From positions 1 to 21,612 of the forward strand of contig CBDDBZ010000012.1 in NCBI GenBank assembly GCA_965225945.1: a stretch of 21,612 bases of DNA, given 5' to 3'. Positions within the stretch are counted from its first letter, which is position 1. Each line of letters begins with the position of its first letter. Below, in pieces: positions 11,389 through 16,860 of the stretch. Origin of the DNA: Alphaproteobacteria bacterium. Its GTDB lineage: Bacteria; Pseudomonadota; Alphaproteobacteria; GCA-2731375. Position numbers and translations under genes: made by a program. The notes under the pieces were generated by a model that did not search any database, had not been told where the DNA came from, and saw nothing but the letters and a program-made list of their open reading frames with translations.

Positions 11389-12248
11389 TCATGCGGCGGG
11401 CCTGAGTGACATCGCGGTGTGCCACGCCTGACGAGCTTGAGCGGGGCTCAGGTAGCCGTTCTTCTCCACGATCCACTGGGCATTGTACTGTTCGACGAAC
11501 CCGCGGACGGCGTTCCGCAGCTCCGCGATGTTGCGGTAGATGCGGCCATGGATGATCTGTTCCTTGAGCGTGCGATTGCCGGCGACGCCGTTGGTCTGGG
11601 GCTGTTCGACGAAGGCGTAGGACGGCTGGATGCCCCAGAACTTGATGGTGAAGTGGTCCGACAGATACTGGGAGCCGTGATCCATCCGCAAGGCCAGCCC
11701 CCGCGCCGCACCGGCGGAGGTCGAGGCATACAGCCTCGCAAGCCCCATGGAGATCGGCTGAAGGGCGGCGAAGCGGTCGCCTCGCTTGCACACATGCCAG
11801 CCGACGCACTCGGCGTTCCAATGCTCGATGGCGGTGAATATCCAGCCCCAGCCGTCGTCCACCGTGAACACCCGAACGCCGTCCGTGCCCCACATGAGGT
11901 TGGGGGCATGGGTGATGATCTCACCGACATGGGGATTTCCGCCACGGCGGCGGCAGCGATGGGGCGAGAGCAGGTTGTTCTCGCGCATCACCCGGAGCAC
12001 CCGCTTGCGGGAAACACGGATGCCACCACCCGAAGCCGAGCCCAGACCTTGCGGTGGTCCCAGGGGGATGCCTCCAGGTCGGCCTATGGCCACCAGCAGA
12101 GCCTCGTCCGAGATCGAGGGCTTCGGTCCCCGGCGCTTTGCTGGTGGGCGCTCACGATTTCATGGCGTAGAACGAGGAACGGGCAAAACCCCAGGCCGCA
12201 CAGACCCGCTGGAGGCCGACCCGTGCCGGGAGAGGTGGCGGCACTCAT
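11389..12248 (-). pseudogene. IS3-like OrfB DDE transposase (rve integrase core), multiply frameshifted
   Basis: ATG at 12248 overlaps the orfA stop (ATGA). Segments GLQRVCAAWGFARSSFY / KRRGPKPSISDEALL / HRKVWARLR / RKRVLRVMRENNLL are joined only through frame changes. WGTD and DHGSQY are present, but NGVA(ERF)NRTLK lacks the catalytic Glu. Confidence 0.85.
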
Positions 12249-12652
12249 CGCCGCGACCTCCGCCGCCCCAAAGGGCCGGACGTCTCCGTCTTGGCCTCCA
12301 GCAGTTCCACCTGCATGATCAACTCCCCGATCCGCTTCATGGCGATGTCCAGTTCCGCCTTTACCGGATCGCCCTTGCGTTCCTTGAGCGAGGCATCGAT
12401 CCCGGCGATCGCCTTCTCACGCCACTGCTCGAGCCGGAAAATCTCCACGCCCAACTGCCGCGACAAAAGTTCCACCGGCTCGCCACGCAAAAGCCGCAGG
12501 GCAACCTCACGCTTGCGCGTCACCGTCCACCGCTGGCCAAGTCCCAGCGGGCCTGCCGGCGAAACCTGGCCCGGGGAAAACGTGGACGAGCCAAGCTCGC
12601 CCTCGTTTACCACAGGCCCATCAACAGCAACTTTGTTCTCAAAATTGTCGGA
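12245..12652 (-). pseudogene. IS3-like OrfA (helix-turn-helix)
   Basis: QRWTVTRKREVALRLLRGEPVELLSRQLGVEIFRLEQWREKA...KRIGELIMQVELL. RBS AAGGAGG is present but the expected ATG appears deleted (ACATCCGACAAT). Confidence 0.75.
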
Positions 12653-12698
12653 TGTTCCGGTCCTCCTTGGGCCAATTCTGTGTCCTGGGTCCGACTCA

Positions 12699-12712
12699 TG
12701 GGAAGCAGAACG
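12699..12712. repeat. Right copy of 14-bp target-site duplication TGGGAAGCAGAACG
   Basis: Identical to 11340-11353; abuts the CA terminus. Confidence 0.85.
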
Positions 12713-13002
12713 AGACCGGCAATGGTTTGAGAGTTGCCGAGGATGTGAGCTGCAATGGGCGGCGTGGCCACCAGAACCGCGAGAGGGCAGCACGGGCGGT
12801 TCATCACCACCATGTTCCTTGGTTATCGAAACAGGGACCAAACGATATTTCTCTCCGAGCGGTCCGCGACTTAAATACGGCAACGAGGTGATCGAGACCG
12901 CGGCTGCGAGGCCGCGCGAGTCGACATCCGCCGGGACAAGACCGTCGCGGTGCGCGGCATTGCGGCACCATGCCGAGCGATGCCATGAAAGGGAGAATGA
13001 CA

Positions 13003-13393
13003 ATGCTTCGTCGATTTATTTCGACCCTGGCCGCCATCGTGACCGCGGGCCTCATCGCGGGCCCCGCGATCGCGGGCGGAGCGGTCAATGAGACTTTGTT
13101 CGGCATCGCGCTCGAGGGTTACGACCCGGTCGCCTACCACAGCGTCGGCAAGCCGGTCGAAGGCAGCGCGCGGATCAGCTACAGGTGGCGCGACGCGACC
13201 TGGCGTTTCGCCAGCGTCGAGAATCGTGACCGGTTCTCCACCGACCCCGAGCGTTACGCACCAGCCTATGGTGGCTACTGCGCCTACGGCATGGCCCAAG
13301 GCGCAAAAATCGACATCGACCCGAACGCCTGGGCCATCGTCGAAGGCAAGTTGTACCTCAATGTGAACAAGAGGGTGCAGCAAACCTGGAAAG
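13003..13393 (+). pseudogene. Secreted YHS-domain protein, 5' part (interrupted by IS110)
   Basis: Signal peptide, ALEGYDPVAY, WRFASVENRDRF..DPERYAPAYGGYCAYG, IVEGKLYLN; breaks after QQTWK. Confidence 0.9.
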
Positions 13394-13501
13394 ATGGTGT
13401 ATCGCGGCGGCTGTGCCTGATGATATCAGGATGAGCGCAGCCCCTTCACGCATGATCGTTGAATCGGGGTCGCCCTGACCTCGAACATCAAGGAAGGAGC
13501 G

Positions 13502-14554
13502 ATGACGATGGCACATTTCGTAGGTCTGGATGTTTCGGTGAAGGAGACGGCGGTATGCGTCGTCGACGAGGTTGGCGAGGTGGTGTTGGAGCGGAAAGTG
13601 CCGACCGAGCCGGACGACATCGTCACGCTGCTGACCTCGATCGGCGTGGCCTATGGCCGGATCGGGATCGAAGCCGGTCCGCTCTCGCAATGGCTGGTCA
13701 ACGGTCTTGCCGCCGCCGGGCTGCCGGTTGTCTGCGTCGAGACTCGGCACATGAAAGCACTGCTCAAGGGGCAGCAGATCAACAAGAGCGACCGCAACGA
13801 TGCGCGCGGCATCGCCCAGATGATGCGGGTCGGGCTGTTCAAGCCGGTGCATGTGAAGACCCTGGTTGCCCAGGAGCAGCGGATGCTGCTGACCAGCCGC
13901 AAGCTGCTCCAGAGAAAACTGCTCGACGTCGAGAACGATCTACGCGGGACGCTGCGCAACTTCGGTCTCAAGGTGGGCATGGTCAGCACCCGCGGGTACG
14001 AGGCGCGGATCCGCGAGCTGGTCGAAGACTTTCCGAAGCTGGCCGCTATTGTGGAACCGCTGCTCACCGTCCGGCGAGTGATGCGCCAGCAGTTCGCGGT
14101 CCTCCACAAAATGGTGCTCGACACGGTCCGCCATGACCCGGTCTGCCGACGGCTCATGACGGCACCCGGCGTCGGCGTGGTCGTCGCGCTGACCTACCGG
14201 GCTACCATTGATCAGCCGCAGCGCTTCGTTCACTCCAGGGCGGTCGGCGCGCATGTCGGCCTGACGCCGAAGCGCTTCCAGTCCGGCGAGATCGACTATG
14301 ATGGTCGCGTGTCCAAGTGCGGCGACAGCATGCTCCGCACGATGCTGTACGAGGCCGCGCAGTCGCTCCTCACCCACGGCCGGAAATGGTCCTGGCTGAA
14401 GGCGTGGGGCATGCGAGTGGCCCAGCGACGTGGCATGCGCCGTGCCATCGTCGCCGTCGCGAGGCGCCTGGCCGTAGTTCTGCACCGCATGTGGGTCGAC
14501 GGCACCGAGTTCCGCTGGAGCAACGGCCCTGCTGACGCCGTCAAGGCGGCTTGA
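13502..14554 (+). CDS. IS110-family DEDD recombinase/transposase
   Basis: GLDVS, IEAG, KSDRNDARGIA (DEDD residues), PGVG, GLTPKRFQSGE (conserved Ser), SKCGD, AIVAVARRLA; intact 350 aa with RBS AAGGAG. Confidence 0.96.
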   Translation: MTMAHFVGLDVSVKETAVCVVDEVGEVVLERKVPTEPDDIVTLLTSIGVAYGRIGIEAGPLSQWLVNGLAAAGLPVVCVETRHMKALLKGQQINKSDRNDARGIAQMMRVGLFKPVHVKTLVAQEQRMLLTSRKLLQRKLLDVENDLRGTLRNFGLKVGMVSTRGYEARIRELVEDFPKLAAIVEPLLTVRRVMRQQFAVLHKMVLDTVRHDPVCRRLMTAPGVGVVVALTYRATIDQPQRFVHSRAVGAHVGLTPKRFQSGEIDYDGRVSKCGDSMLRTMLYEAAQSLLTHGRKWSWLKAWGMRVAQRRGMRRAIVAVARRLAVVLHRMWVDGTEFRWSNGPADAVKAA

Positions 14555-14604
14555 ACCTTCGACTGTACTGACAAGGAGATCAACGAGTTCTGCTTAGGCA
14601 GAGA

Positions 14605-14773
14605 GATGTCCTCACGGGGACGACGGGTGGGGTGAGTTCGTAATGTCGGTAGACCCTGCCGCTGACCGGCGGCAAGGACGCGCGAAAGATTGAACCGCCT
14701 CATCCTCTGATCCCATCATGAGGTGGCCACGCGCCAACCTCGAAGAGAAGCAAGAGCCCCGTGCGGCAACATC
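14605..14773 (+). ncRNA. Predicted bridge/seek RNA of the IS110 element
   Basis: Closing stem CACGGGG (14613-14619)/CCCCGTG (14757-14763) encloses two hairpins with internal loops whose strands match the target site and the element ends (see findings). Transcript ends are unknown. Confidence 0.8.
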
Positions 14774-14828
14774 CGCCAGTGCGGAACGACGTGAAGAAGG
14801 AATATGGCATGACGTAACCAGAAAGGGC

Positions 14829-14852
14829 TTGACCGAGGACGCGATAGAGAAG
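14829..14852 (+). promoter_or_regulatory. Outward-facing -35 (TTGACC) completing a promoter at the circle junction
   Basis: Joining the right end to the left end through one core gives TTGACC, 17 bp, GATGGT, as expected for IS1111-type circles. Confidence 0.6.
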
Positions 14853-14911
14853 CCGACATTCCCGGCTACATCGCGCGCGCCGATCGGCACTGGGGGCGGC
14901 TCATGGGTTGA
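14853..14911 (+). pseudogene. YHS-domain protein, 3' part
   Basis: (A)DIPGYIARADRHWGRLMG*, the typical I..AD..W C-terminus of this family, in frame after IS removal. Confidence 0.88.
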
Positions 14912-14978
14912 GCCGGGGGCGCGCGTGCTCCGGGCTCGCGCGCATCCCGCGCCGCACACTTTACGCCTCGAGGATCCA

Positions 14979-15841
14979 ATGATGATCATTACGCGAACCG
15001 CTAGCCGCGCCGCCCTCGGTATTTTGCTGGCGCTCGTCTTCACGCTCCCCGCGGTGACCGCCTCGGCGGCGCCCAGGCCGAGTTGTGGGAGCGTTGGACC
15101 GCACATGATGCCGCATCCACCGCCACCATCGATCATTCGGCGTGGGACAGGTTTCTCGAGGCCAATCTCGTCCTCGGCCGGGACGGCATCAACCGGATGG
15201 CCTATGGCCAAGTCTCCGCGGCGGACCGCAAGGCGCTCGCCCGCTACCTCGACGCGCTCGCGGCGGCGCCGATCAGCCGCTATAAGCGCGACGAGCAGCT
15301 GGCCTATTGGATCAACCTATATAACGCGCTGACGATCAAAGTCATCCTCGACCATTATCCGGTCAAAAGCATCCGCGATATAGACATCTCTCCCGGTTGG
15401 TTCTCGTTTGGCCCCTGGGACAGGAAGTTGATCGAGGTGGAGAGCGAGATGGTGTCGCTCAACGACATCGAGCATCGCATACTGCGGCCGATCTGGCGTG
15501 ATGCGCGGATCCATTACGCGGTCAACTGCGCCTCGCTCGGCTGTCCGAACCTGGCACCCATGGCGTATAATGCGAAAACCACGGTCAGCAGCCTGACCGC
15601 GGGTGCGCGCGCCCATATCAACCACCCGCGCGGCGTCTCGATCGAAGGCGGGCGGCTCTACATTTCAACGATCTACAAGTGGTTCGTCGAGGACTTCGGC
15701 GGCGACGACAAAGGCGTGCTCGACCATCTTCGCCAATTTGCCAATCCGGAACTCGCAAACAAGCTCGCAAAGTTCGTCGCAATCGACGGCTACAGGTATG
15801 ACTGGGGGATAAACGACGCAGTGCCGATAGAGCAAATGTGA
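14979..15841 (+). pseudogene. Secreted DUF547-domain protein, 1-bp frameshift near 15077
   Basis: Signal peptide ...TASAAPR in one frame continues as AELWERW...IDHSAWD, QLAYWINLYNALT, SLNDIEHRILR, DARIHYAVNCASLGCPNL, YDWGIND in another. May be a sequencing indel. Confidence 0.88.
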
Positions 15842-16860
15842 TGTCCCGTACCAGCCCTATTTCGACGAATCGGAAACTGTTTTTGACCGGAGCCTCCGGC
15901 GTCGTCGGAAGAGCTCTCCTCAAACAGCTGGCGAGCAATGAGGTTATTTGCCTAACGCACCGAGAGCCCGTGTCGACGCCTGGCGTGGAGACGGTGCACG
16001 GCAACATCACGGAAAGGCGGCTTGGCCTCGCCAAGGATTCATTCGGCGAGCTCGCCAATCGAATCGGCTGCATCGTTCATGCCGCCGCCGTTACCAAATT
16101 CTCCCAGTCCGCGAAAAATATCTTCGCCGCCAACGTCGAAGGCACCAGACAGGTCCTGGAATTGGCTCGAGCCGCTGGCGTTCCGCTATATTTCGTCAGC
16201 ACGGCCTTCGTGCATCCGGTTCGCGACCTCACCGGTACCGCCGTGTCCAACGCGTACGTGGAGTCCAAGCTATGCGCGGAGGACATCATCCGATCAAGTG
16301 GGCATCCGGCCACGATCGTGCGCCCGTCCATAGTCGTCGGAGATTCGAGGACCGGCGAGATCAATAAGTTTCAGGGGTTCCACCAAATTCTCGAAGTGGC
16401 GTTACGGGAACGGGTACCCTGGCTCCCGGGAGCAGCGGACGGCTATATCGACTTCATCCCCCAGGATGCCGTCGCGGACATCATCCTCGGTCTCGTGCGG
16501 GCGGAGGTCGTGAACCGAGACTATTGGTTGACGGCTGGCGCGCGCGCCCCGCGGTTGCAGCATCTGCTCGCTCTGGCCGTCGCCATCGCCTCTCACCTAT
16601 TCGGACAGCCAATCCCCGTGCCGCATCTGGTGAGACCCGAGGTGTTCGAGCGGTTTCTCCGCTCGAAACGCCTCGCCGCCCAGCCGGCCGCCAAGCGTAT
16701 CGCCTACAAACAGCTTTCCCATTACGCCCGGTATCTGTCGATCGTCGAACCGCTCCCGACCTCGCTTCCCGACCTTGCCTACGATTGCGATTAGACCTTC
16801 GTCTCGAACGTCCGGTATTGGTGTGCGCGCAACGGCCACGCCGAGTTCGTGGCGGCGTGA
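15841..16860 (+). CDS. Extended SDR / thioester-reductase-like NAD(P)-binding oxidoreductase (TAG at 16792-16794 may be premature)
   Basis: FLTGASGVVG, IVHAAA, NVEGT, VSTAF, YVESK, RPSIVVGDSRTG; TGATG coupling to DUF547. The frame stays open past the TAG (TFVSNVRYWCARNG) to TGA 16860, which is 19 bp before the next start. Confidence 0.8.

Follow-up and report, generated by a model that had tools for sequence, protein, structure and literature searches.

RNA-guided recombinases of the IS110 family are under development for inserting, inverting and deleting DNA without double-strand breaks, and most such work is based on IS621 and a few relatives. On a contig of an alphaproteobacterium (CBDDBZ010000012.1, positions 1 to 21,612; this stretch of 21,612 nucleotides is called the window below), a transposase gene of this family is followed by a long non-coding end, and the locus raises the question of whether that end encodes an RNA that specifies where the element inserts. 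The initial annotation had answered that it does, placing a bridge or seek RNA at 14605-14773 with four guide segments that match the target and donor sites of this copy. From the analyses described here we consider it very probable (about 0.9) that a bridge RNA (seekRNA) of ~170 nt, which would guide insertion, is encoded on the transposase strand within the 3' non-coding end; that the RNA is produced, that the protein binds it and that this copy is active, we infer from the IS110 family.

The element, its ends and its transposase

The ends of the element are common to ten full copies in this genome, at 98-100% identity (Table 1). In a genome of the same genus the orthologous site is empty and reads ACCTGGAAAG-CCGACACG across the insertion point, which fixes the boundaries and indicates that no bases were duplicated beyond the shared AG. 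Insertion is sequence-specific, and a target-site duplication is absent from the ten copies when judged with the empty congener site. In the window the element interrupts a gene for a YHS-domain protein, the orthologue of which is uninterrupted in the congener (83% identity). Just upstream of this gene, an open reading frame at 11389-12093 on the minus strand has the appearance of an IS3-type transposase remnant, with matches to rve, HTH_21 and rve_3 below the Pfam cutoffs and to rve_2 just above; a Pfam search of the overlapping frame at 12245-13003 on the minus strand returned no match. The genes at 15083-16794 on the plus strand, encoding a DUF547 protein and an NAD_binding_4/epimerase-type reductase, are unrelated to the element.

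Of the two non-coding ends, the right one, downstream of the transposase gene, measures 298 nt and the left one, upstream, 108 nt. Subterminal inverted repeats of 7 bp lie 6 nt from each element end; those of relatives are 9-10 bp long and covary between clades (TATCGCGGC versus TAATCGGCCG), and a range of 7-17 bp is given for the IS1111 group (PMC11208160). The terminal ATGG is retained in relatives with an assigned left end, with the exception of one misassigned row, and a copy on a Bosea plasmid carries ATGA in its place.

The transposase has a DEDD (RuvC-like) domain at the N terminus (PF01548, 68.9 bits) and PF02371 at the C terminus (73.6 bits). With the NCBIfam model NF033542 ("IS110 family RNA-guided transposase") it scored 250 bits, where the cutoff is 140. 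Because relatives align from residue 3, the true start may be M3. Alignment to the protein chains of IS621 (E = 1e-12) and ISCro4 (E = 1e-13) retains D10, E57, D97 and D100, together with G253-L254-x-P256-x4-S261-G262, that is, a GL-P----SG motif. The D, E, D, D and Ser positions are catalytic in IS621. A GL-P----S/TG motif is described for IS1111-type proteins (PMC11187229). When identical proteins were sought in the protein collection for the window transposase and seven sister copies, no match was found, for which a different called start is a possible cause. With a DEDD/Ser transposase, subterminal repeats, a long 3' non-coding end and insertion without duplication, the hallmarks of the IS1111 group are all present, and the element is an IS1111-type member of the IS110 family.

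Table 1. Features of the element and of its insertion site, in window coordinates.
Feature	Position	Strand	Basis or remark
Whole insertion sequence, 1459 bp	13394..14852	+	Ten copies and empty congener site; one AG core copy counted, at the right end
Interrupted YHS-domain gene, 5' part	12970..13393	+	3' part 14853-14911; Pfam YHS match below family cutoff
Left target half TGGAAAG, core AG at 13392-93	13387..13393	+	Final 5 nt identical to loop strand 14684-88
Left terminal extension ATGGTG (left donor half)	13394..13399	+	Core G plus ATGG complements 14713-17
Left subterminal inverted repeat TATCGCG	13400..13406	+	Reverse complement of 14840-46
Transposase/recombinase gene, 350 aa	13502..14554	+	PF01548, PF02371; NF033542
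Predicted bridge/seek RNA region	14605..14773	+	Covariance-model match 14605-14775; model R1, 176 bits
Closing stem	14613..14619 / 14757..14763	+	Minimum-free-energy fold
Arm-1 outer stem	14625..14639 / 14692..14705	+	Minimum-free-energy fold
Putative target loop, 5' strand AATGTCGG	14642..14649	+	Reverse complement of CCGACATT at 14853-60, 8/8
Arm-1 apical hairpin	14657..14674	+	Minimum-free-energy fold
Putative target loop, 3' strand GCGAAAG	14682..14688	+	Sense of left target half plus core, so would pair with bottom strand
Putative donor loop, 5' strand CCATC	14713..14717	+	Complement of GATGG at 13393-97
Arm-2 hairpin	14720..14741	+	Minimum-free-energy fold
Putative donor loop, 3' strand AGAGAAG	14744..14750	+	Sense of right end plus core, equal to 14846-52
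-35-like TTGACC facing the right end	14829..14834	+	Conserved; function speculative
Right subterminal inverted repeat CGCGATA	14840..14846	+	
Right terminal extension GAGAAG (right donor half plus core AG)	14847..14852	+	
Right target half CCGACATT	14853..14860	+	

A conserved fold downstream of the transposase gene

A check of the sequence, together with a fold of 14605-14773, bore out the initial annotation in the placing of all four segments, both junctions and the stems. This region folds at -74.5 kcal/mol (z = -3.3), a stability equalled by none of 200 shuffles; the longer stretch 14555-14852 folds less distinctively (z = -1.6). In this element the two bases after the 5' target strand are UA; CU, which would pair with the core, stands there in the more distant clade (65-68% protein identity). 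A search of Rfam 15 over 13000-15300 with E values up to 1 returned no matching family, which means no more than that Rfam lacks a curated model for this RNA.

Comparison with relatives was more informative about the fold. A scan of species-representative genomes yielded at least 559 stretches encoding relatives, of which the best 80 were analysed (65-95% protein identity); the resulting alignment, A1, excludes four loci (L043, L056, L058 and L072), as well as duplicates and any sequence of less than 150 nt. Among the 59 distinct sequences, 79.3% of cells pair, versus 36-46% when the partners are slid, and the covariation score was matched in 0 of 500 shuffles. Compensatory changes occur in eight of the 17 pairs of the arm-1 outer stem (90.7% of cells paired), in eight of the ten pairs of the arm-1 apical hairpin (81.5%) and in four of the eight pairs of the arm-2 hairpin (87.7%), where both sides of such pairs have changed in 14-27 sequences. 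The closing stem is paired in 84.3% of cells, and none of its nine pairs has double changes on this alignment.

Variation within the alignment is concentrated precisely in the two strands of the arm-1 internal loop, the rest being strongly conserved. According to the initial annotation, a fold that buried the four segments in stems would have spoken against a guide role. The window fold does depart from an ideal open loop, in that 3 nt of the target strands pair together (TCG/CGA), but the helices that bury guide strands are poorly kept among relatives, being paired in 29% (the TCG/CGA helix) and 52% of cells. Judged from these comparisons, the predicted structure is a conserved fold with internal loops that would present guide strands, as in bridge RNA or seekRNA.

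Guide strands follow the flanks of insertion sites

If the arm-1 loop reads the target, its two strands should change as the insertion site changes, and a covariance test of this kind had been proposed in the initial annotation; when it was run, the scaffold stems covaried and the loop bases tracked the flanks. For the guide/flank counts we dropped seven rows with no recognisable right end in the search range (L040, L043, L051, L058, L072, L082 and L105) and four with a misassigned end (L056 and L073 on the right, L050 and L098 on the left), and also excluded loci with too little flank or an N. With G-U pairs allowed, 21 of the 50 unique combinations of a 5' loop strand with its right flank matched at 8/8, 19 at 7/8, seven at 6/8 and three at 5/8, as compared with an average of 5.7 for unrelated pairings of guide and flank. 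On the right side as on the left, 0 of 5000 permutations were as good, and the same held on both sides (0/5000) within each clade, in a fixed register and with Watson-Crick pairs only; these permutation counts overstate the significance, since the relatives are not independent.

The extent of the match could be read from the closer clade, in which 20 unique pairs with 16 different guides show near-complete pairing at flank positions 1-8 and background levels at positions 9-10; seven of these pairs are 8/8 Watson-Crick, and four more reach 8/8 given wobbles alone. On the left side, identity in relatives begins at position -1, takes in the AG core and persists as far as -7, after which it falls. 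The guide of the Bosea plasmid copy matches 8/8 on the right and 7/8 on the left. Seven loci match poorly at the fixed register (L048, L055, L061, L062, L065, L078 and L103), and in three of them, L055, L061 and L078, the register is apparently shifted, by 2 nt in L055.

The left guide, given in the initial annotation as GAAAG, stood for the window copy, where the loop strand at 14682-88 matches the copy's own left flank over 5 nt (14684-88 = 13389-93), and proved too short for the commoner repeat-type targets, on which the match is 7 nt, GCGAAAG, as at L003, L004 and L006 (flank GAGCGAAAG).

As far as sequence comparison can tell, then, the target-loop strands are predicted to read opposite DNA strands on the two sides of the core, and they change together with the target. 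A further step, which we take only tentatively and at somewhat less than even odds, is to regard the clade (65-95% protein identity) as a natural reprogramming series, in which one scaffold carries more than 30 target-loop sequences that each match their own site, with a 15-bp code made up of 5 nt and the AG core to the left and 8 nt to the right, tolerance of U-G wobbles, and exact targets that are all filled in this genome.

The strands of the putative donor loop and the element ends are both nearly invariant and hence offer no covariation to compare. The donor strands match the joined ends over 5 nt (CCAUC) and 7 nt (AGAGAAG); in relatives CCCAU is conserved, and GAGAAG is invariant in 59 of the 59 sequences aligned. 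These conserved matches are consistent with an arm-2 loop that would read the donor.

Copies and targets in this genome

Beyond the ten full copies, the genome holds one broken copy and one 262-bp stump; model R1 matched 12 copies, and the RNA is identical in most. The initial annotation had named insertion of other copies at unrelated sites as a finding that would count against its reading; instead, all ten full copies lie at sites resembling GAAAG-CCGACATT, the hyphen marking the insertion point. The left flank is GAAAG in nine of the ten and GATAG in one, and the right flank is CCGACATT in seven, CCGGCATT in two and ACGACATT in one. The changed base in CCGGCATT would give a U-G wobble with the guide, and the two copies that have this flank are identical in their flanking sequence, from which we conclude that both lie within one larger repeat. 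Most insertion sites fall in a dispersed repeat.

A search for unoccupied sites, with at most one mismatch to the 13-mer and the fifth base free, found 30 near-sites, including four repeat copies reading GAAAC-CCGACATT, in which the core G is changed to C, and five reading GATAG-CCGACATT. None of the 30 near-sites in this genome was an exact unoccupied GAAAG-CCGACATT. That no exact site is free, and that some near-sites have an altered core, suggests that the targets are saturated in this genome and that the core is required.

Several copies depart from the common form. The window copy differs from its sisters at several left-end and coding positions. The stump (L013, at C37:60701-60962) is identical to element positions 1198-1459, comprising the RNA region and the right end; its right flank is the normal CCGACATTCGG, its 5' side abuts unrelated sequence, and it could either supply RNA in trans or be a simple truncation. 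The broken copy (L011, L012 and L014, at C37:368927-374285) is in three pieces, split by insertions of 2545 bp and 1338 bp that are both flanked by short direct repeats, the second lying just past the RNA closing stem. In L010 (C29:43159-44614), ~20 differences are clustered in the 3' part, equivalent to 14477-14727 of the window, and two guide bases are changed (14648 G>T and 14684 G>A), yet the flanks are the same as those of L005; this copy looks as if it had been partly exchanged with a different variant.

A search of 33 genomes from the order, this one included, gave matches to model R1 in only four, and in neither of the two congeners searched. This patchy distribution, with congeners that have no copy, points to a recent gain of the element and a burst in this genome. 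The closest relatives found, L026 and L027 (94-95% protein identity), are on 1.6-1.7 kb contigs from metagenome bins that bear the labels Dehalococcoidia and Myxococcales, and the other close relatives are all from Alphaproteobacteria; mis-binning of a repeat contig seems likelier than transfer between phyla. The genome also contains a second, distantly related IS110-family element in five copies (L015-L019, on C30, C16, C11 and C13), with 72% identity over ~160 nt of the gene. Model R1 matched neither these copies nor L020, so the second element does not use this RNA scaffold.

Transcription

A scan of 13300-14950 for sigma-70-like promoters predicted none, and the two terminator-like sites that it returned are both on the minus strand inside the transposase gene. 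The RNA might be made by co-transcription with the gene followed by processing, or from a non-consensus promoter. Contigs assembled from four RNA-library runs of one study, out of 21 runs listed, cover 13389-14861 and continue into the flanks of other copies, and neither a joint nor a circle junction was present in them; as these contigs may be DNA and carry neither strand nor ends, they have no bearing on transcription either way. A TTGAC followed by C, A or T lies 24-28 nt inside the right end in most of 58 relatives. This motif could, speculatively, be the -35 element of a promoter completed at the circle junction, where the best -10 match is only 3/6.

Proposed mechanism and alternative explanations

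By analogy with IS621 and with the IS1111-type elements ISEc11, ISPa11 and ISKpn4, the element would excise as a circle in which the right end is joined to the left (...AGAGA-AG-ATGGTG...), and the DEDD/Ser recombinase would bind the RNA. The two strands of the arm-1 internal loop would then each pair with a different strand of the target, one to the left and one to the right of the AG/CT core, and the arm-2 loop would read the donor, CCAUC pairing with the core G and left end and AGAGAAG with the right end and core. Exchange of strands at this shared dinucleotide, AG (CT when the opposite strand is read), would yield an insertion without duplication.

Three other explanations were weighed against this one. 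That the four matches arose by chance, in a structured region that is simply an ordinary 3' UTR or terminator element, is a view to which we give practically no credence. In 20000 dinucleotide shuffles of the non-coding end GAAAG appeared in 9918 (50%) and CCATC in 4057 (20%), as against 1300 for AGAGAAG and 111 for the 8-mer; both 5-mers are thus frequent by chance and alone mean little, and the signal is carried by the 8-mer and the 7-mer. The common 5-mers and the modest z score of 14555-14852 would fit chance, but all four segments together, in any place and any order, arose in 2 of the 20000 shuffles, and dozens of relatives that have other targets show the same positions following their flanks. 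Nor do we think it at all likely that the family is RNA-guided while this copy, or its lineage, is a dead relic in which the matches record history. Against the divergence of the window copy from its sisters, the copy broken by two insertions and the stump, all of which would suit a relic, stand a full-length reading frame with its catalytic positions kept, the near-identity of the ten full copies (98-100%, with most RNAs identical) and the occupation of every exact target in the genome; the two congeners searched and found to have no copy likewise argue for a recent burst.

The guide might instead act as DNA. Internal guide sequences of IS200/IS605 elements read the cleavage sites, and single-stranded transposon DNA could play such a part here, or the loop strands could be internal copies of sites bound by the protein. 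Covariation of guide and flank would look alike under a DNA guide, and the promoter scan and the RNA-library contigs, as described above, do not disfavour one. Yet repeats bound by a protein would not follow each flank base for base, and the stems themselves favour RNA: G-U makes up 265 of 2547 cells, and stem pairs read on the plus strand are paired in 86.8% of cells, versus 80.5% when read on the minus strand. The protein, moreover, matches a model of RNA-guided transposases (NF033542), and an RNA guide is described as co-purifying with the transposase in this protein family (PMC11187229; PMC11208160). We therefore hold both forms of this proposal to be very improbable and retain the bridge RNA encoded by the 3' non-coding end as the preferred reading.

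Relation to known systems

The RNA-guided mechanism and its occurrence in most IS1111-type elements were published in 2024, with bridge RNAs predicted in 93% (PMC11208160). The mechanism has thus been known since then, and the present element is very well supported as a further member. The class facts on which the initial annotation drew, an RNA downstream of the transposase in IS1111 elements (PMC11187229) and a CT core in IS621 (PMC11208160), agree with these accounts.

Close parallels in design are ISEc11, ISPa11, ISKpn4 and ISPst6 as described by Siddiquee et al. (2024, PMC11187229), which likewise have a long non-coding region downstream of the transposase gene, subterminal inverted repeats and the GL-P----SG motif, and whose proteins, at 330-350 aa, include the length found here (350 aa). 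In that account IS1111-type seekRNA elements also insert site-specifically without duplication, and the order of guides is the same as in the present element, both matches lying in one folded arm with the top-strand match on the 5' side, the reverse of the IS110-type order; arm 1 (14625-14705, 81 nt) is close in size to the short seekRNA of 82-96 nt reported for IS1111-type elements (PMC11187229). The sequence and target differ from those of the four named elements.

IS621 (Durrant et al. 2024, PMC11208160; structures 8wt6-8wt9) similarly has a target loop and a donor loop, with guides for the top and bottom strands that flank a shared dinucleotide core, here AG and thus CT on the other strand. 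As described there, IS621 differs in that its RNA lies in the left end, upstream of the gene, its guide order is reversed and its subterminal repeats are 2-3 bp; further, the right-side target guide of the present element is, unlike that of IS621, 8 nt long and does not reach the core. The alignment to the IS621 recombinase, in which DEDD and SG are kept, spans mainly the C-terminal domain.

The nearest named relative found was ISMno22 of Methylobacterium nodulans (NCBI annotation of plasmid NC_011887.1), at 51% protein identity. An RNA of the same family follows its transposase gene immediately (model R1, 115 bits, E = 3e-26), with the same donor strands and the same ATGG and GAGAAG ends and with different target strands; in the copy inspected the guide complement begins 4 nt past the assigned end, so the right boundary is approximate. 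A full-text literature search for ISMno22 returned no paper naming the element, and ISMno22-like elements may already figure among the ISfinder elements for which Durrant et al. tabulate predicted bridge RNAs in their supplement. [quoted passage not shown]

Significance

No new mechanism is revealed by this element. What the clade offers is a natural record of how positions in the RNA read positions in the DNA in an IS1111-type system with a shared AG/CT core, including the mismatches and wobbles that are present at real insertion sites. For this genome, the finding accounts for ten full and two partial copies, for the disruption of the YHS gene and for the occupation of the dispersed repeat. 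Should it match IS621 in activity and in freedom of programming, the system would amount to an independent IS1111-type recombinase, with rules of specificity that are legible from genome sequences alone.
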